Virus record (IMG/VR): IMGVR_UViG_3300013105_000005
Location: 1-64,000 of that record
Origin: a virus
Taxonomy: Duplodnaviria > Caudoviricetes
Strand: one strand, 5' to 3'
Length of the DNA stretch: 64,000 nucleotides
Below the pieces are notes generated by a model. It was not told where the DNA came from. It did not search any database and was given only the letters and a program-made list of their open reading frames with translations. This document shows positions 23,489 through 57,082 of this stretch, piece after piece. The position numbers and the translations under genes are program-made. How positions within the stretch are numbered: the first letter of the stretch is position 1; each line of letters opens with the position of its first letter.

Positions 23489-24061
23489 GTGGCAAAGCAA
23501 AAGAACAAAGGTGGAAGACCGCGCAAGGAAATACCGGAAGCGGTACGCAAGATCATTCTTGGCTTGATAGGTGCGGGCGACAGCGATAATCGAGTCCAGA
23601 AAATTACCCACGTACAGCCTCGTGAATGGAAGCGTCTTGCGGCAGAGAACGAGGGTTTTGCAGAGCTATTAGATAGGGCCGAGGAACAACGTGACGGTGG
23701 ACTCGCGAATACACTTCGCGAGTCGATGATTAACCAGATTAAAAAGGGTCATCCGTGGTGGGCCAAACTGGCTATCCACAATTACAACGTCTTGCTCAAA
23801 GACCCGGACGTAATCGGGGCTGCGAAGGTCAAGAAGTTACTCGAACAAGCCAAGCAGCATGATGACCCATCCGCCTACGTTGAAACTAACCCGTCGCTGG
23901 CTGCCGTTGCGTTTCCACCCGGAGCAATGCCGTCTGGAGGAATCGGACGCCCGATTCAAAATAGTCCCAGCGGGACGGCGCAGCGGGAAAACGGAAATAG
24001 CCAAGCGGATGCTGGTAAAAAAGCTTTGGGAGATGAAAACCACGAGCCGCCCGTGGAGTGA
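23489..24061 (+). CDS. terS: terminase small subunit (putative)
   Basis: GGRPRK plus N-terminal HTH; directly upstream of terL. Confidence 0.6.
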   Translation: MAKQKNKGGRPRKEIPEAVRKIILGLIGAGDSDNRVQKITHVQPREWKRLAAENEGFAELLDRAEEQRDGGLANTLRESMINQIKKGHPWWAKLAIHNYNVLLKDPDVIGAAKVKKLLEQAKQHDDPSAYVETNPSLAAVAFPPGAMPSGGIGRPIQNSPSGTAQRENGNSQADAGKKALGDENHEPPVE

Positions 24062-25172
24062 TCCGCGATACTTTGCAGCAGCGCCGACGCGAGATCAGGC
24101 CAAGCGAATCTTCTGGAGCGATCTAAAGCGATTGGTGCCGCCGTATTGGAAACTCTCCACCTGCGAAACAGACCTGCGCATCACAACCAAATGGGGTGCG
24201 GAACTTTGGGTAGTCGGCCTCGACAAAGCCGAGCGCGTCGAGGGTACGCCGTGGGATGGATGCGTGATAGACGAGTTGGCCAACTGCAAGTCGGGAATTT
24301 GGGATGCCAACATTCGCCCCGCGCTGTCAGACCGGAAGGGATGGGCCTGGCTGATTGGCGTGCCGGATTTCGACGGGCCAAGTCAGGTTGAGTACGCTCG
24401 AATGTACGACATGGCACGCACTGGCCAAGACCCGGAATGGGCTGGTTTTAATTGGGGATCGGCCGACATTCTCCCGGCGTCTGAGGTGGAATCGGCTCGT
24501 CGCACGATGGATGCAACTCTGTTTGACCAGGAGTTCGGCGGAGTCTTTGTAAAACCCGGTGGCTTAGCATTCATGGACTTTGATTCGGCAACCCACGTGC
24601 GCGACGATATCGCAACCTACGATCCGAGTCTCCCGCTGTGCTGGTCACTGGATTTCAACGTAGACCCGTTCTGCACTGGCGTCATTCAGCATCACCAAGG
24701 CAAAGTGCGTGTAATCGCCGAAGTCATTACCCGCGACAGCAGCACGCCGGTCATGGTCAATGCCTTCCTCGAACGGGCGCAGCACGAGGGTTGGAACCTG
24801 CGGGACCTGAGAATATACGGTGATGCAACCGGCAACGCCCGTGATACAACCAGCGGAGAATCGGACTGGGCAATCGTACGGCGAATGCTCCGTGAGTACG
24901 AGCCAAAGTACAAGGTTCCCGTTTCTCCGTGGCCAATTAAGGATACGCTCAATAGTGTGCGCGCAAAGCTGAAGAATGCCGCTGGGGAAGTAAGCCTCTG
25001 GATCAATTCGTCTTGCCGCCAGCTCATCGCAGACTTCGGAAACCTTTTGTGGCCGTCCGATCTTTCCGAAGGTCATTGCGTGGCGTGGCTGCGATATTTC
25101 TCGCAATGGGAATATCCGGTTCGCGTGATTCATCGTGCCCCTCTGTTCGGCGGCTCCGCACTCGCCAGTTAA
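23859..25172 (+). CDS. terL: terminase large subunit
   Basis: AGRRSGKT Walker A, YFAAAPT, CVIDE Walker B, LDFN and GDATG nuclease motifs. Confidence 0.92.
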   Translation: MMTHPPTLKLTRRWLPLRFHPEQCRLEESDARFKIVPAGRRSGKTEIAKRMLVKKLWEMKTTSRPWSDPRYFAAAPTRDQAKRIFWSDLKRLVPPYWKLSTCETDLRITTKWGAELWVVGLDKAERVEGTPWDGCVIDELANCKSGIWDANIRPALSDRKGWAWLIGVPDFDGPSQVEYARMYDMARTGQDPEWAGFNWGSADILPASEVESARRTMDATLFDQEFGGVFVKPGGLAFMDFDSATHVRDDIATYDPSLPLCWSLDFNVDPFCTGVIQHHQGKVRVIAEVITRDSSTPVMVNAFLERAQHEGWNLRDLRIYGDATGNARDTTSGESDWAIVRRMLREYEPKYKVPVSPWPIKDTLNSVRAKLKNAAGEVSLWINSSCRQLIADFGNLLWPSDLSEGHCVAWLRYFSQWEYPVRVIHRAPLFGGSALAS

Positions 25173-50413: not shown

Positions 50414-51397
50414 TCAGACGGTTGGCAATCTCCTTTCGGTTTTCACTCTTTCCGCCAGACGCTTTCGCGCTCTGGCAATCCATGCCCAGTTGATAAGCGG
50501 CGCGGCCATCAACTCCGCCAAGAGCCGTGCCATGTCGCCGCCCTTGTTTTTCCACTCGCGCAAATCCTTGTCGGGCTTCGGCGTCAACATGAATTTGGCT
50601 TTCCCGGCTTCCGGCAAGATCGCCTCGGCCAGTTCCACTGCGCCCTCGATGCCCGGCCAGTATGGCGTCCCGTTGGGCATGTACTTCGTGCGGTCGTTGT
50701 CGGCGACCACGATTACGATTTGCTTGGGAAGCTCGTGCAACAGTTCCTTGGCGTACCCAGATCCCGCCTTGTTGCTCGGGCGCCCGACGGCCATCAGGCC
50801 GAAGTCGTAGGCCGTCATGGCGTCGGTCAGACCCTCAGGGAGCATCAGGAGCCAGGGCATCGGATCGTCGCTCACTTCGGCGGGAATTGGCTTGGGGTCG
50901 TAATCGCCGGGGATGAACAAACCAAGCTGCGAACCGGGCACGCACCATTTCTTGCCGGCACCGTCGCGCAGATGAATGCCGATGATATTTCGTTTGCCAT
51001 CGTACATCGGGAATGACCACGCCCCGCGTTCGGTGTCCCAGCCCACTCCGTACGCTTTCAGTGCCTTGACCGACACGCCCAGCGAAGTCGCAAACTTCGT
51101 TAGCCGTTGCGGGTTTACCGCCGTCTTGTGCGATTTAAGGATGGATGCGATTTCCGATTTGGTCAGGCGCGCCCGTTGCGCCTTGGCTTTCAGCTTGTCG
51201 GCCTTGCCGGTTTTCGCCGATGAATGCAGGTAGGCTATCGAGCCGTCTTTCTGCTTGATCGGGCGATCTGATATCGCTCTCATGCACTTGATGATTAGGC
51301 CATCCGCCGATGCGGTACACCATCCGCCCTTGTGTCCGCAGGCCGGGCACTCGCCTTTGATTTCGCACCACTTCGCAGCCGGGGGAGTAATGGTCAT
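50414..51397 (-). CDS. DNA primase (Zn finger plus TOPRIM)
   Basis: CPACGHKGGWC; PEGLTDAMTA; ADND; KDLREW. Confidence 0.8.
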   Translation of the reverse strand: MTITPPAAKWCEIKGECPACGHKGGWCTASADGLIIKCMRAISDRPIKQKDGSIAYLHSSAKTGKADKLKAKAQRARLTKSEIASILKSHKTAVNPQRLTKFATSLGVSVKALKAYGVGWDTERGAWSFPMYDGKRNIIGIHLRDGAGKKWCVPGSQLGLFIPGDYDPKPIPAEVSDDPMPWLLMLPEGLTDAMTAYDFGLMAVGRPSNKAGSGYAKELLHELPKQIVIVVADNDRTKYMPNGTPYWPGIEGAVELAEAILPEAGKAKFMLTPKPDKDLREWKNKGGDMARLLAELMAAPLINWAWIARARKRLAERVKTERRLPTV

Positions 51398-54123
51398 GCT
51401 GCACCTGCAACTTCCTTGGCGCTTTCGATGGCGCGGCTGGCGGCATCGAAGTTCATCAATGAAATGGTTTCGGCTGAATACCCCAGGTAACGGAGATACT
51501 TGGCCTGCCCCGTCGTACAGCGTTCAGACTTAAGCTTTTCGATTACTGCCGATGCTTGGCGCTTGCTGAATGCGCCGGCGGCTTCACGCTTCACGCCCAG
51601 TTTCACCAGCAACTCAACCTGCTTATCACTCGACCCGCCCGACGTGGCGGCGAACTTCCGCGCCGGCCCGATATCGTGCGGGTCCATCGCGTTAATTTCT
51701 GTCATGTCGTAGCTGGTGGTAGCGACCAACGCGGCGCGCCGTGCGGCTTCGGCGTTTCGCTTCTTCGCTTCCTCGGCAAGCAGTTGCTCGTATTCTTCCT
51801 GCTCGCGCATCGCTTTGACTTGGCGCTCTTCGTCAATCTCAAGTTCCGCCTGCTGTAACGCCGCTTCTACATCGACGGCTTCCTGCTGCGCCAGCAGCTT
51901 GGCCCGCTCGATAACCTGATCGTCGTAGCGTTCATCGCCAAGAATATCGGCGGTCGAAATGAGCTTGTGCCGCCCGGCGTTGCCGACGAAATCCAAAATC
52001 TCACAATTCGAAACTAAGAGACCCTCGACAGTGAAGCGATGGCGGGGTCCGGCGTTAATGATGTCGAATACGCGAGCTTTCCTTTGTATGGGCCTCGCGG
52101 ACGGTGATTCCGAATAATCTGCTCGAAAGATATTCCGCGACCGAGAAGTCTCCTCAAGTGATCGTCCGAGAATCCAGCAAAGGGAAACATCAGTCTGAAT
52201 CTGTGAATCATTGGAGTGATGCGCTTCCCGCGTTGGTTGTTGCACTGGATGGTCCTTGTGGCCCATCGCAGGTTCCCAGGCTCGTAGTGCCTGTTGTTGT
52301 CGATCCGATCGATTTGCATATTGCGGCGCAGGCCGAGATTTACTTGAATCCAAATTGCCATTTCGAGCGGGGAGGCGAAGCGAAATTGAATGCCTCTGCC
52401 CCCGTAATGCGCAAAAACATCCGAGTTTGGATTCACGCATCGATTCTTCGCCAGATTGCATCGCCGGATTAGCCACGGCGGAGCGTTCTGTGGACTGCCG
52501 CATTTGCGACACCCCGCAGTATTTTTTTTCAAGCTTTGTATCTCTTTCAGTTCCTCTTTCCCGCAGAACGTGCATCTTGTCAGCAGAAATGCGCGGGTCG
52601 ATTTCCGTACAATGTTTCCGTTCACAACGATCAGCTTCCCGCACCGCCTGCCCTCCCACTCCGGTAACACAGATGGGAATTTGTTGGGCGGCACACTCCC
52701 CAAACGTCTTCCGCATTTTAAGTGGGGACGATTTACCGGTCTGGTCATAGACGTATACCTCGTGGTCGGGAGTTGCGGTCAATCCCGCGTAATCAATTAC
52801 CCCTTGTTTGCCACGAAATATACTACCACCACAAGATACAAATTCAATCCCATCCCATACAAGCATCTTGTCTGTCACGAATTCGATAGGAACCAATCCG
52901 ACGTTAGTTAAGACTCTTTGTCCCTCAGCGATGCAACTGGGTTTTTGGCTTGATGCGATGAGCGAGCGACGACCGGATGCTTCGGCGATATCCCCAAGCC
53001 GATGCGCAATGGAATCTTGCGGTCGCGTACCACGTCCGGCCATCTGCGCATACAAAGCGCGGCTCTTGGTCGGACGAGCCATAACGACAAGCTCGATGCC
53101 AGGATCATCGAAGCCTTCGGTAGCCACGCCAACATTAACAAGAATGGAAAATCTGTTTTTTGCGTAGTCCGCGAGCATGTCCCGGCGAGTCTGCTTGGCG
53201 GTTTCGCCGCAGACGAACCGCGCGCACCCGTCCACCCAACGATTGAAGATTTCCGCCAGCCGCTCAGCCTGCGCCACCGACACGGTGAACACCAGCGTCT
53301 TGCGCATCTTGCGCCCGGCCATCATCGCGGCGAGTTTTTCCTGCCGTTTATCATCGTCCTTCAACGCCGCAAGAGATCCCGGTTCAAGATTGGCGGCGCG
53401 TTCGATGGTCGCATGGGCGACAGGATGCAGCGACGATTCAAACTCCATGACGGCGGCAAGGTCCGCCTGATTCAAGTCATTACCAACGGTGCGGCACTTG
53501 CTGAAATCCAAGCCAGCCACAGCGACCGAAAACTGTCGAACTGGAACAAGCCAGCCATCGCGGATCGCGGAATGCAGGTCGTAATTGAAGGCAACAGTAT
53601 CAAAGACGCTGCCAAGTCCTTCCCCGTCGCCACGATCGCCAGTCGCCGTCACACCCAAAACGCGAAGATCGGGATTGGTGCGGAAGTGGTCAACCACTCG
53701 CCGGTAACTTGCGGCAACCGAATGATGAGCTTCGTCGATGACCAGCAGCGCGAAGTCGTTGGGATTGAATCGGTGCATGCGCTTGCCATCGTCCAACGAT
53801 GCGTTTTGCGTCTGCACTGACGAGATGATGAAGTTTGCCGCCCAGGGCGAATGCTCCGGAAGTGTTGCCCACTGCGAGGCCATTTCGATATCGACGCCCT
53901 CGCCGGTGACGGCCTTGATCTTGTCGGCGGCTTGGTAAATCAGTTCCTCGCGATGCGCCAGTACCAGCACGCGGCCACGCGATGAAAACTCTTTGGCGAC
54001 GTGGGCAAACACTACCGTCTTGCCGGTGCCCGTCGGCAAGGTCACGATTGTTGATATGCGCCCGCCAGCAAACTCACGATGCACGGCGTCATAGGCGGAC
54101 TGCTGGTAAGGTCGTAGTTTCAT
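51394..54123 (-). CDS. SF2 DEAD/DEAH-like helicase containing an intein
   Basis: LPTGTGKT, IDEAHH, GVTATG, EGFD, QMAGRGTR, LDFVGN. Confidence 0.92.
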   Translation of the reverse strand: MKLRPYQQSAYDAVHREFAGGRISTIVTLPTGTGKTVVFAHVAKEFSSRGRVLVLAHREELIYQAADKIKAVTGEGVDIEMASQWATLPEHSPWAANFIISSVQTQNASLDDGKRMHRFNPNDFALLVIDEAHHSVAASYRRVVDHFRTNPDLRVLGVTATGDRGDGEGLGSVFDTVAFNYDLHSAIRDGWLVPVRQFSVAVAGLDFSKCRTVGNDLNQADLAAVMEFESSLHPVAHATIERAANLEPGSLAALKDDDKRQEKLAAMMAGRKMRKTLVFTVSVAQAERLAEIFNRWVDGCARFVCGETAKQTRRDMLADYAKNRFSILVNVGVATEGFDDPGIELVVMARPTKSRALYAQMAGRGTRPQDSIAHRLGDIAEASGRRSLIASSQKPSCIAEGQRVLTNVGLVPIEFVTDKMLVWDGIEFVSCGGSIFRGKQGVIDYAGLTATPDHEVYVYDQTGKSSPLKMRKTFGECAAQQIPICVTGVGGQAVREADRCERKHCTEIDPRISADKMHVLRERGTERDTKLEKKYCGVSQMRQSTERSAVANPAMQSGEESMRESKLGCFCALRGQRHSISLRLPARNGNLDSSKSRPAPQYANRSDRQQQALRAWEPAMGHKDHPVQQPTREAHHSNDSQIQTDVSLCWILGRSLEETSRSRNIFRADYSESPSARPIQRKARVFDIINAGPRHRFTVEGLLVSNCEILDFVGNAGRHKLISTADILGDERYDDQVIERAKLLAQQEAVDVEAALQQAELEIDEERQVKAMREQEEYEQLLAEEAKKRNAEAARRAALVATTSYDMTEINAMDPHDIGPARKFAATSGGSSDKQVELLVKLGVKREAAGAFSKRQASAVIEKLKSERCTTGQAKYLRYLGYSAETISLMNFDAASRAIESAKEVAGAA
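52006..52935 (-). mobile_element. 310-aa intein (C1...SN|C)
   Basis: CIAEGQRVLT block A, TPDHEV block B, VFDI...FTVEGLLVSN block F/G, +1 Cys. Confidence 0.88.
52014..52748 (-). CDS. HNH homing endonuclease overprinted inside the intein in an alternative frame
   Basis: RCVNPN...YGGRGI...IDRIDNNRHYEPGNLRWAT...NNQR; GAGGT RBS 8 nt upstream. Confidence 0.85.
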   Translation of the reverse strand: MTRPVNRPHLKCGRRLGSVPPNKFPSVLPEWEGRRCGKLIVVNGNIVRKSTRAFLLTRCTFCGKEELKEIQSLKKNTAGCRKCGSPQNAPPWLIRRCNLAKNRCVNPNSDVFAHYGGRGIQFRFASPLEMAIWIQVNLGLRRNMQIDRIDNNRHYEPGNLRWATRTIQCNNQRGKRITPMIHRFRLMFPFAGFSDDHLRRLLGRGISFEQIIRNHRPRGPYKGKLAYSTSLTPDPAIASLSRVS

Positions 54124-55100
54124 GCCGCCCCCTTGCTCGTGCGCATCTCACGCGGCGCGCTGGTGTAGATGGATTCGCAGACCCAGCCCAGCCCCTTGCA
54201 GGCATTGCATTCTTCGCGCTTCGTCGCCTTGCCCTTGCAGTACGGGCAGACCGCGTGCGGCTTGCCGAATCGCACCGCTTCGTATGCGTTATGTACGTCG
54301 GCCTCGAACTGCTGTAGCCGGATGTAGCTGGCGGGAGCGCCGAGATTCTTGATGACTGATTTGACCCGGCGCAGGTCATTCATCGCTTGCTTGAAAACAT
54401 CGCTGGAAGCGAACGCTTCGCGGATGTTGGCGCGATCGGGAAGTGGCTGGTCCAGCATGTCCACTGGCGGCGGTGCCGCTTTCTCGTCGTCTTTGCCATC
54501 AAGAATTTCCTTCGCCTTTTTTGGATTGGTGTCAACTACCTTGGCGGCTTTGATAACCCGATTCTTCGGCGGCGCCTTACCAGCGATGGCTTTATCCCCA
54601 ATTTCCTTGTCAATCTTTTTTACCTTTTCGACCGCTTCGGCAAATTCACCGTCCCTGCGAATCGTCCTTTCTGTCACGCCAAATTCTTCGGCAAGTTTCT
54701 GCGAAGTTTTCAAGTGGACATTTTGTCCACTTGAACTTTTGTCTCTTGCCCCGCCATGCCCTTTACTTGTCTGGTTGTAAATTGAACCCCTGATAATACT
54801 GGCCTGATCCGGCGACAGATTGCGCCGCCCAAGTTGGGTTTTCTTCACCCATATTTCGGCATCATTCCGTTCTGTGAAACTGATTTCCTTGACCCGATAT
54901 CCGATCCCCAGGCGGTCCCCGATTTCCTTCCGGTTGTGGCCGTCCAGAAGGATTCGCTTTTCCTTCCAAACAATCAATGGCGACAGGATTTCCTTGTCGG
55001 CCTTAATATTTTCTTCCAGTGTTGCTCGCTCGTCATCGGTGAGCGGCGGTATCATCGACCGGATATCAACGTCGATGATGATGTTGTCTTCCTTGCCCAT
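54120..55100 (-). CDS. ParB-like N-domain phage protein with C-terminal Zn finger
   Basis: PPLTDDE...LEENI...LLDGHNR...QLGRRNL; CPYC...CNAC. Confidence 0.75.
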   Translation of the reverse strand: MGKEDNIIIDVDIRSMIPPLTDDERATLEENIKADKEILSPLIVWKEKRILLDGHNRKEIGDRLGIGYRVKEISFTERNDAEIWVKKTQLGRRNLSPDQASIIRGSIYNQTSKGHGGARDKSSSGQNVHLKTSQKLAEEFGVTERTIRRDGEFAEAVEKVKKIDKEIGDKAIAGKAPPKNRVIKAAKVVDTNPKKAKEILDGKDDEKAAPPPVDMLDQPLPDRANIREAFASSDVFKQAMNDLRRVKSVIKNLGAPASYIRLQQFEADVHNAYEAVRFGKPHAVCPYCKGKATKREECNACKGLGWVCESIYTSAPREMRTSKGAA

Positions 55101-55814: not shown

Positions 55815-56840
55815 TCATGCGGTTGCTCCGGTTGCGATAAAATCAAACAGTGGTGAATCTGATTCGCCCTTGAGACAATGCGAACTGAACCAAACGCGCT
55901 CCCTGCTCCGGTTCAACTGCGCCTGTGTTTCATCGTCGGCAGTAACCGAATATCCCCCGGCGGTTTTCCACTCATGGACCGCCCAATCGTCTGGCATGAC
56001 GTGCTGGCCTTCGTACCCGCAAAGTGCAATTCGCATCAGCGGGTTTGCGCCGTTGCTGATTGCCCATTCGCGCACGGCGGACGCAATTCCGGTGCAGCGG
56101 TTTCCGCCGACGGCGTAATCAAGCTCTCCCTCACCGTAGGGCGGATCGAGCAACACGCCGGTCATGCCGTGGCGGAAGGTGATGCTTGGCGTCAGTACGC
56201 GCGTCCAATCACCGCAGGCCACGCGAACACGACGGAGCCGGTCGGATAGATCGTGAAGGTAGGCGGCAACACCCTTCCCCGCGTCGCCCAGGTGCGGGAG
56301 TTTCCTATTGACACCCTTCCCCGCGTCGCCCAGGTGCGGGAGTTGGCGATTGATGCCCTGTCCCGCGTTGCGCAGTTCCCAGCCGTTTTCGGTGACGCGC
56401 CATGGTCCTTCTCCTGAACACCACCCCGAACCGATCCAAGCACACGCGCCCCATACCCACCATCCGGCAATCTTGGCGTCGTAGCCTTCTGGCTCAACCA
56501 GCAACTTCCCCAGCTTCTTCGCGCCATCGGTGATGAGCCAGAAGTGGCGGGACTCGAGGTCGCATTCATTCACCGGCCAATCAGCATGAGCCGCAACGGA
56601 GTCCGGGTCAGCTTGGACCGCGCGCCAGAAGTTGCAGATGAATCGGTCGGCGTCGTTGACGGTTTCAATCTTCGGCTCATGCGGCCGCGCCAGCAGGACA
56701 GCGAGCGATCCGCAGAACGGGTCAACAAAGTTGTCAACGTCGCCGAACCGCCGCCAGATTTCTTCCGCGACCCGGCTCTTTCCGCCGAAGTACGGGTATG
56801 GAGATTTCAGTGGCGATGCTGGTGCAGCTTCGGCTCTCAT
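55815..56840 (-). CDS. D12-class DNA adenine methyltransferase
   Basis: YFGGKS, DPFCGS, LDPPY; ATGA-coupled start at 56840. Confidence 0.88.
   Translation of the reverse strand: MRAEAAPASPLKSPYPYFGGKSRVAEEIWRRFGDVDNFVDPFCGSLAVLLARPHEPKIETVNDADRFICNFWRAVQADPDSVAAHADWPVNECDLESRHFWLITDGAKKLGKLLVEPEGYDAKIAGWWVWGACAWIGSGWCSGEGPWRVTENGWELRNAGQGINRQLPHLGDAGKGVNRKLPHLGDAGKGVAAYLHDLSDRLRRVRVACGDWTRVLTPSITFRHGMTGVLLDPPYGEGELDYAVGGNRCTGIASAVREWAISNGANPLMRIALCGYEGQHVMPDDWAVHEWKTAGGYSVTADDETQAQLNRSRERVWFSSHCLKGESDSPLFDFIATGATA
56269..56344. repeat. 42-nt period tandem repeat in methylase (LPHLGDAGKGV twice)
   Basis: Identical 34-nt copies at 56269 and 56311. Confidence 0.85.
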
Positions 56841-57082
56841 GCCTTCCTCTTGTTCCAGACGGCCAACGCCTTCTCTTCCGCCTCCGCCGACGTGTTCCCG
56901 CAAATGCTCTCGGTCCTGATGCCGCACTTGCTGCATTTGACGCAGGCAACGAAATCGCCGTCGCGAGGTGGCCTATCTCTGTGCTGCCGTTGCATGAACT
57001 GTTGCGGGAGCGGCGCAACCACAACCTGCGCTTTCTCTCCGCAATGGGCACATGGTTTTGCTTTGTTCATGGCACTTCCCAA
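56837..57082 (-). CDS. Lar-like Zn-ribbon protein
   Basis: KPCAHCG...CSKCG...A...WNKR. Confidence 0.65.
   Translation of the reverse strand: MGSAMNKAKPCAHCGEKAQVVVAPLPQQFMQRQHRDRPPRDGDFVACVKCSKCGIRTESICGNTSAEAEEKALAVWNKRKA

Follow-up and report, generated by a model that had tools for sequence, protein, structure and literature searches.

How can one stretch of phage DNA hold an open intein within a helicase gene and, one nucleotide out of register, a complete gene for a putative homing endonuclease? The question is raised by an insert in a helicase gene of the viral record IMGVR_UViG_3300013105_000005 (IMG/VR; Duplodnaviria, Caudoviricetes). We analyzed positions 1 to 64,000 of this record, here called the window. 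The source genome, that of an uncultivated phage, is complete, with 76,375 bp and direct terminal repeats, and the window covers most of it. In our view the element is in all likelihood a mobile intein of non-canonical two-frame design, located in the replicative superfamily 2 (SF2) helicase that a complete phage genome of 76 kb encodes. Translation in the helicase frame would run through the whole element, and the two Hint lobes would fold together around a disordered linker of 187 residues and splice the helicase between KPS and CEILDF, as conserved catalytic residues and the fold suggest. The DNA beneath the linker would serve as an HNH-like homing endonuclease gene, read one nucleotide downstream and probably translated separately from an ATG and a Shine-Dalgarno (SD) motif inside the block-B codons, to which the maintained starts and SD motifs point. 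By analogy, this nuclease presumably cuts intein-free helicase alleles, and repair would then copy the entire element in. Selection would keep the amino-acid sequence of the nuclease and constrain the host frame only against stop codons, so that the structured parts of the two proteins would hardly overlap. An earlier note on this DNA had proposed a dual-coded selfish element of this kind, and the proposal is now supported by 122 loci with the same +1 offset, by selection on the nuclease frame, by kept starts and SD motifs and by a precise empty site. The parts of the locus are as follows.

51394-54123, minus strand: SF2 DNA helicase precursor of 909 amino acids including the intein (Pfam ResIII 7.8e-29, DEAD, Helicase_C; phrog_16 DNA helicase 1.2e-79).
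52936-54123, minus strand: N-extein, helicase residues 1-396, ending in SSQKPS (alignment with intein-free homologs).
52006-52935, minus strand: class-1 intein of 310 codons, from Cys1 to Ser309-Asn310, with Cys at +1 (C1, T55, H58 and N310 invariant in 58 relatives; top Foldseek matches are inteins).
52657-52935, minus strand: Hint N-terminal lobe, intein residues 1-93, with blocks A and B (beta strands at an AlphaFold predicted local distance difference test score, pLDDT, of about 97; conserved consensus).
52096-52656, minus strand: in-frame 'linker', intein residues 94-280, stop-free, unconserved and predicted to be disordered (pLDDT below 55, without secondary structure or consensus).
52006-52095, minus strand: Hint C-terminal lobe, intein residues 281-310, with blocks F and G, ending in RVFDIINAGPRHRFTVEGLLVSN (pLDDT 89-96; conserved consensus QTxRxVWDILNAGPxxRFTVxGLLVHN).
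51394-52005, minus strand: C-extein, helicase residues 707-909 plus stop, starting with CEILDFVGNAGRH (alignment with intein-free homologs).
52014-52748, minus strand: overprinted gene for a putative HNH-like homing endonuclease, 244 amino acids and a TAG, read in +1 with respect to the helicase (phrog_374 2.4e-23, phrog_3377 1e-18; model pLDDT 84).
52757-52761, minus strand: SD-like GAGGT formed from the H-E-V codons of block B; the nuclease ATG follows after 8 nt (sequence).

Both frames are open in the window. The intein, helicase residues 397-706, runs stop-free from Cys1 (TGC, 52933-52935) to Asn310 (AAT, 52006-52008). The nuclease open reading frame (ORF), one nucleotide downstream of the helicase frame, extends from its ATG (52746-52748) to a TAG (52014-52016) placed 8 nt before the intein end. 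The earlier note had described an open intein of 310 codons, an ORF of 244 amino acids at 52748-52014 shifted by one nucleotide, and a GAGGT in the H-E-V codons of block B, and all of these coordinates are correct on the sequence. With this geometry, a stop in the helicase frame needs a nuclease codon that ends in T followed by a codon that starts with AA, AG or GA. Sixty nuclease codons start in this way and not one of them is preceded by T, compared with 44 of the 184 other positions. Synonymous shuffles of the nuclease ORF predict 10.2 helicase-frame stops against none observed, and none of 100,000 shuffles was stop-free (P<1e-5); the third frame has 15 stops. Since none of the 60 vulnerable junctions is used where 10.2 stops are expected, the helicase frame must be held open by selection.

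The same layout is found in a large family. From IMG/VR and GTDB genomes 159 loci were retrieved, and 127 of them have Hint N and Hint C matches on either side of the nuclease; as related loci share ancestry, the counts and p-values given for them do not represent independent events. The Hint frame lies exactly one nucleotide upstream of the nuclease frame in 122 of the 127 (109 of these are unique), with an unbroken host ORF of 700-1300 amino acids, and the other five are exceptions with indels or rearrangements. Across the 109 unique inteins, 29,229 nuclease codons contain no host-frame stop where synonymous shuffles predict 1,247. Homologs with stops in the intein frame, which the earlier note had named among the observations that would overturn its reading, were looked for, and none was found in this set. 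By comparison, stops occur at 6.2 per 100 codons in the equivalent relative frame of 29 relatives that are free-standing and have no Hint flanks. Chance openness of the host frame is rejected by the shuffles in the window together with the absence of stops throughout the family. In most loci the nuclease stop also lies 8 nt before the intein end and is formed by the Leu-Val codons of block G. A 28.7-kb phage-like scaffold (L001), which is the closest long relative, shares the helicase site and the intein; its nuclease is 54% identical and likewise offset by +1, and the intein frame is open across it.

Some members depart from the common layout. In L001:3819-6331 a frame change of 1 nt between blocks A and B breaks the host gene, and for this reason the locus is called as helicase-N, nuclease and helicase-C genes; it may be a real broken or 'fractured' copy or an assembly indel. 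In L060:2640-3650 and L011:2780-3700 a single indel in the overlap disrupts both the host and the nuclease frame, and the two appear to be decaying or misassembled; in L060 the Hint N lobe is now fused in frame with the C-terminal half of the nuclease. L076:2757-3971 holds a helicase intein of 405 amino acids with a nuclease open frame of 345 codons; upstream of it, at 1090-1515, the nuclease is weakly matched a second time. Two sets of Hint matches in different frames surround a single nuclease gene in L111:2490-4054 and L081:2523-4657, which may be tandem or rearranged inteins.

What, then, does the nested frame encode? It matches PHROG families named 'HNH endonuclease', namely phrog_374 (E 2.4e-23) and phrog_3377 (1e-18) and also 2081 and 4578. 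More than 5,000 relatives are present in databases, the nearest of them, with about 250 amino acids, sharing 40-57% identity across 95% of the length. The window copy retains all 24 residues that are invariant across 34 homologs. The structural model (mean pLDDT 84) consists of an N-terminal beta barrel with a Cys4 ribbon, a core with a beta-beta-alpha element and C-terminal helices, and two parts of it can be placed on the DNA.

52500-52574, minus strand: Cys4 zinc ribbon (C59, C62, C80, C83) in the N-terminal beta-barrel domain (invariant in 34 homologs; weak Zn_ribbon match; model strands 39-69).
52224-52487, minus strand: nuclease core, residues 88-175, with the YGGRGI and IDRIDNNRHYEPGNLRW motifs and the beta-beta-alpha element at residues 145-171 (homolog alignment; model; PacI match).

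Invariant in the core of the 34 homologs are Y115, G116, R118, G119, D147, R148, Y155, G158 and N159, and the beta-beta-alpha element is modeled as strand 145-148, strand 160-163 and helix 165-171. Further VIA-align matches to the model were weak and concerned SH3/Tudor-like barrels (Z 4-5). A sequence profile search of the PDB with the nuclease gave no match, and Foldseek of the model against the PDB gave nothing meaningful. In the ESM Atlas the nuclease hits viral 'hypothetical' clusters only, of which a minority carry NUMOD or I-HmuI-like domains; we take this as a lead and not as evidence.

Kept ATGs and SD-like motifs favour independent initiation of the nuclease over frameshifting. In 103 of 109 loci an ATG is found in the short open stretch (median 41 codons) before the conserved core, where about 53 would be expected from composition and 52 are seen in the third frame. 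Two starts recur. One lies at intein codon 48, where a Tyr-TAT and the following G make the ATG, often after an AGGAGGT from x-Glu-Val codons; the other, that of the window, lies at intein codon 62 after a GAGGT from His-Glu-Val, and this position with GAGGT or GAGGTG is common to about 12 relatives. Of 107 loci, 37 have a strict SD core upstream of their first ATG, where the background is 12.7% (p 5e-9). A programmed +1 ribosomal frameshift would be another way to produce the nuclease, either as an N-extein-HintN-nuclease fusion or, after a second shift, as part of a canonical in-frame intein. Such an event would be served by a single mRNA that carries both frames with the nuclease in +1, and five loci (L062, L074, L098, L104, L121) even keep the nuclease frame open upstream of the intein start. 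Most loci, however, and the window among them, have a nuclease-frame stop in the Hint N lobe just before the start, and the host frame stays open without any shift. The 65% of loci that lack a strict SD core would fit a frameshift, but the excess of ATGs and the enrichment of SD cores speak for initiation. No conserved slippery site turned up, although no search aimed at slippery sites was made. We therefore consider a frameshift improbable and favour separate initiation inside block B.

The next question is which of the two frames selection acts on. It was addressed on nuclease-guided codon alignments by counting pairwise differences per codon position. At 15-30% divergence the differences are 0.44 at position 3, 0.17 at position 1 and 0.10 at position 2 of the nuclease codons, and amino-acid identity is 0.80 in the nuclease frame against 0.50 in the host frame. 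By both statistics, purifying selection across the homologs acts on the nuclease frame only, and the in-frame linker is relaxed. A double-frameshifted relic was considered as well and is rejected by the same codon-position and identity statistics. Confidence in the nuclease model is low for the first 20 or so residues and for parts of the last 25 or so, the segments that overlap the Hint lobes; since these ends coincide with the lobes, there is hardly any overlap between folded regions of the two proteins. The conservation of both terminal tails in the nuclease family largely reflects Hint blocks B, F and G, read in the other frame. The earlier note had stressed that both frames must stay open over about 730 nt. 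This openness is real, but the double constraint was overstated, since it hardly touches folded parts of both proteins at once.

It might be argued that the +1 ORF of this phage has lately become an inactive relic: its nuclease would no longer work, the element would be inherited only vertically, and the helicase frame would stay open because the helicase is essential. The homing-cycle model indeed has endonucleases decay after fixation, and a few relatives are visibly broken (L011, L060). The window copy also lacks the commonest family start, because Tyr49 is encoded there by TAC instead of TAT and a TGA follows. Its own start position is nevertheless shared with the dozen relatives mentioned above, and the ORF is intact with its own ATG and GAGGT and all of the 24 invariant residues, in a family whose substitutions show purifying selection. 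We judge a relic to be about as improbable as a frameshift, and a functional nuclease gene remains the preferred reading.

As for the helicase frame, the insert starts with CIAEGQRVLT after the flank QKPS, contains GLTATPDHEV and ends in RHRFTVEGLLVSN, followed by CEILDF. The T-x-x-H of block B is present (T-P-D-H in the window), and T55 and H58 are invariant in 58 sequences. The host-frame alignment has a strong consensus over the first 90 or so and the last 28 or so residues and none between. Foldseek of the host-frame intein model returned inteins or Hedgehog Hint domains for all top matches (prob about 1, best E 1.5e-3). With Pfam and NCBIfam, the intein frame gave no intein and no domain in the 187-residue middle, where the earlier note, too, had seen no recognisable domain and which is predicted to be disordered; intein and nuclease were recognised through structure and PHROGs. 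Position 1 is Cys in all 122 loci; at +1, 119 have Cys or Ser, and ungapped extrapolation left 3 unresolved. When the intein ends are written with a slash at the junction, 94 loci have C...HN/C, 19 SN/C, 5 HN/S and 1 AN/C, again with 3 unresolved by ungapped extrapolation. The S-N end that the earlier note had pointed out in the window is hence a recurrent variant and not an oddity, because SN/C is found in 19 loci. Inteins without a penultimate His can splice. Taken together, the insert appears to be a class-1 intein with a Hint fold, and we infer splicing from the conserved catalytic residues and this fold.

Intein-free homologs of the helicase (550-620 amino acids; exteins 50-58% identical to the window helicase) read KPSCEI(L/V)DFVGN without interruption and leave a clean gap of 309-310 residues at the intein position in the alignment, within a conserved helicase segment. 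Because these homologs are continuous at KPSCEI(L/V)DF, the insertion is exact, and the Cys at +1 belongs to the site itself. Other helicases of the same family have inteins at other sites: those of P0126 and P0161 are canonical with LAGLIDADG-type domains (Pfam Hom_end, Hom_end_hint, LAGLIDADG_3), and that of P0122 has Pfam intein/Hint-type domains (PF07591, Intein_splicing).

The insert could also be a tolerated surface loop of the helicase that does not splice and carries a nested nuclease gene, much like the ShiLan domain. Out-of-frame HNH insertions without splicing domains do exist (PMC11855218), and the missing penultimate His of the window intein would agree with a loop. Its position within a conserved helicase segment does not, nor do Hint lobes that are predicted at a pLDDT of about 97 and match solved inteins, nor the family-wide conservation of C1, of T and H in block B, of the final N and of Cys or Ser at +1. 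This makes a loop very unlikely, slightly more so than a relic or a frameshift, and a splicing intein is what we retain. The notion that indels make an ordinary in-frame HNH intein seem frameshifted, which two compensating indels in one assembly could mimic, has next to no probability left and is refuted by the comparative data, with the same offset in 122 independent assemblies, among them complete chromosomes and genomes of isolates, and an absence of host-frame stops beyond chance.

Several points besides the shared ancestry of the loci weigh against a splicing intein with an active, overprinted HNH nuclease. The window intein has Ser and not the usual His as penultimate residue, the terminal Asn being invariant in the family. 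Only 35% of the loci have a strict SD core, and the start of the window nuclease lies about 14 codons beyond the one most common in the family. The best fold match of the nuclease, the HNH restriction enzyme PacI, is weak (VIA-align Z 3.7, root-mean-square deviation 3.2 over 74 residues). At the first-strand position where HNH enzymes have the catalytic His, the family has D-R (D147-R148), with H154 about 90% conserved and N159 invariant. Pfam HNH models do not match the nuclease family (HNH_3 reaches only E 0.21 in 1 of 34 members), nor does NCBIfam. The term 'HNH-like' is used here because the label rests on the PHROG names, the weak PacI match and an Arg in place of the first-strand His; the plain 'HNH' of the earlier note agrees with the PHROG family names but not with the Pfam HNH models or with the missing first His.

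The helicase gene belongs to a replication module and is flanked by a primase-like gene (50414-51397) and a ParB-like gene (54120-55100). Elsewhere the window encodes a terminase large subunit (23859-25172) and a DNA methyltransferase-like protein (55815-56936). The nearest named relatives of the helicase and intein come from metagenome-assembled genomes of Planctomycetota, which suggests a host from this phylum.

How old is the arrangement? The exteins of the unique loci are SF2 helicases (62), family A DNA polymerases (43) and four unclassified proteins. The varied junction sequences had raised the idea of many insertion sites, which was set aside, since Pfam gives two extein families among the loci tested; with only two families, most of the variety of junctions probably reflects divergence of the same two sites. 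A maximum-likelihood tree of the nuclease, made in a quick IQ-TREE run, separates the polymerase-borne from the helicase-borne set with about one switch, and the overlap is therefore older than that switch. Among the carriers are prophages or contigs assigned to Planctomycetota, Pseudomonadota, Bacteroidota, Acidobacteriota, Chloroflexota, Bacillota, Actinomycetota and others. They include the isolate or prophage genomes Javan255 (L162, MK448719.1), 113 and 101 from Streptococcus and vB_Gva_AB1 (L163, MW387018.1) from Gardnerella; in all four the nuclease is hidden, unannotated, in one 'DNA polymerase' coding sequence (CDS), and in Javan255 and vB_Gva_AB1, where this CDS is named 'DNA polymerase (I)', the intein is not annotated either.

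It is conceivable, though we hold it to be rather doubtful, that the two-frame design is the stable ancestral architecture of a whole large endonuclease family and no rare accident. A free-standing gene would have been captured once by a mini-intein and then spread over a long time through phage helicases and polymerases of many phyla. Because the start signals sit in the Hint block-B codons, translation of the host gene would determine nuclease expression, and the two might be coupled. If this were true, the family would be a present-day case of the 'splicing first' route that leads to bifunctional inteins and fractured genes, and would represent a class of overlapping genes that annotation pipelines systematically miss.

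With more than 100 diverged loci and matched free-standing controls, the family offers a large and clean data set for a layout that the literature calls rare. It is an example of cheap sharing of DNA between two proteins, in which one frame carries the fold and the other only avoids stops and stays disordered. The data bear on the acquisition of endonucleases by inteins and on the possible origin of split inteins. They also reveal nuclease genes that annotation hides in 'helicase' and 'DNA polymerase' CDSs, including those of isolated Streptococcus and Gardnerella phages. A small Hint domain that tolerates a disordered loop of 187 residues may in addition interest intein engineers.

Out-of-frame or antisense endonuclease genes in inteins were reportedly first proposed by Gorbalenya in 1998. 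The earlier note had set the window against the rule that homing endonucleases are normally in-frame; the case is not singular, given the large family described here and out-of-frame cases in bioRxiv preprints of 2025-26 from the Gogarten laboratory (10.1101/2025.01.02.630785; 10.64898/2026.09.14.751524). For actinophages, inteins have been described whose splicing blocks enclose an endonuclease VII-like gene in 'frame 3'; the exteins are terminase, capsid, polymerase and thymidylate synthase, and invasion of an intein by a free-standing endonuclease gene was proposed as the origin of such inteins (10.1101/2025.01.02.630785). These inteins share with the window a nuclease gene on the same strand, in another frame and between the splicing blocks, and an in-frame middle without recognisable structure. 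They differ in the nuclease, which is EndoVII-like in 'frame 3' there and PHROG-374 HNH-like in +1 within an SF2 helicase here, and in number, as a small sample there compares with more than 100 loci from many phyla and zero host-frame stops here. An intein from 1997 with an HNH-type nuclease is cited in the same work (10.1101/2025.01.02.630785); as far as that citation goes, the nuclease there is a domain of the intein polypeptide, whereas here it is a separate ORF in another frame. Our literature search found no HNH-like gene overprinted in an intein.

The dnaX intein of cyanobacteria carries an out-of-frame (+2) LAGLIDADG endonuclease (Phillips, DeSimone & Gogarten, 10.64898/2026.09.14.751524). 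There, too, a disordered in-frame linker lies over a well-folded endonuclease, selection depends on the frame and putative SD motifs precede the internal start. That nuclease, however, is of the LAGLIDADG type, in +2, in a cellular gene and in one phylum, while the family described here is HNH-like, in +1, in phage genes and in many phyla. The ShiLan domain is an HNH endonuclease encoded out of frame within a phage DNA methylase (Arsenault, Gosselin & Gogarten 2025, PMC11855218). It resembles our case in that a hidden HNH gene uses a shifted frame of an insertion which the host frame crosses without a stop, and in that the stop codon of this gene falls within the last few bases of the insertion. 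It has no splicing domain and is thought to remain as a loop, in contrast to the complete Hint lobes and splicing residues found here. In fractured genes, split inteins have a free-standing endonuclease gene between their halves (Dassa et al. 2009, PMC2677866). Splicing function and endonuclease are separate products of one locus in both situations, but the host gene is divided into two ORFs there, while one continuous ORF of 909 amino acids is overlapped by the nuclease here; fractured-looking or broken members (L001, L011, L060) are rare in our family. Thus, the general layout is already known, and it is in the nuclease family, the frame and the helicase extein that the element of the window differs from the described cases.

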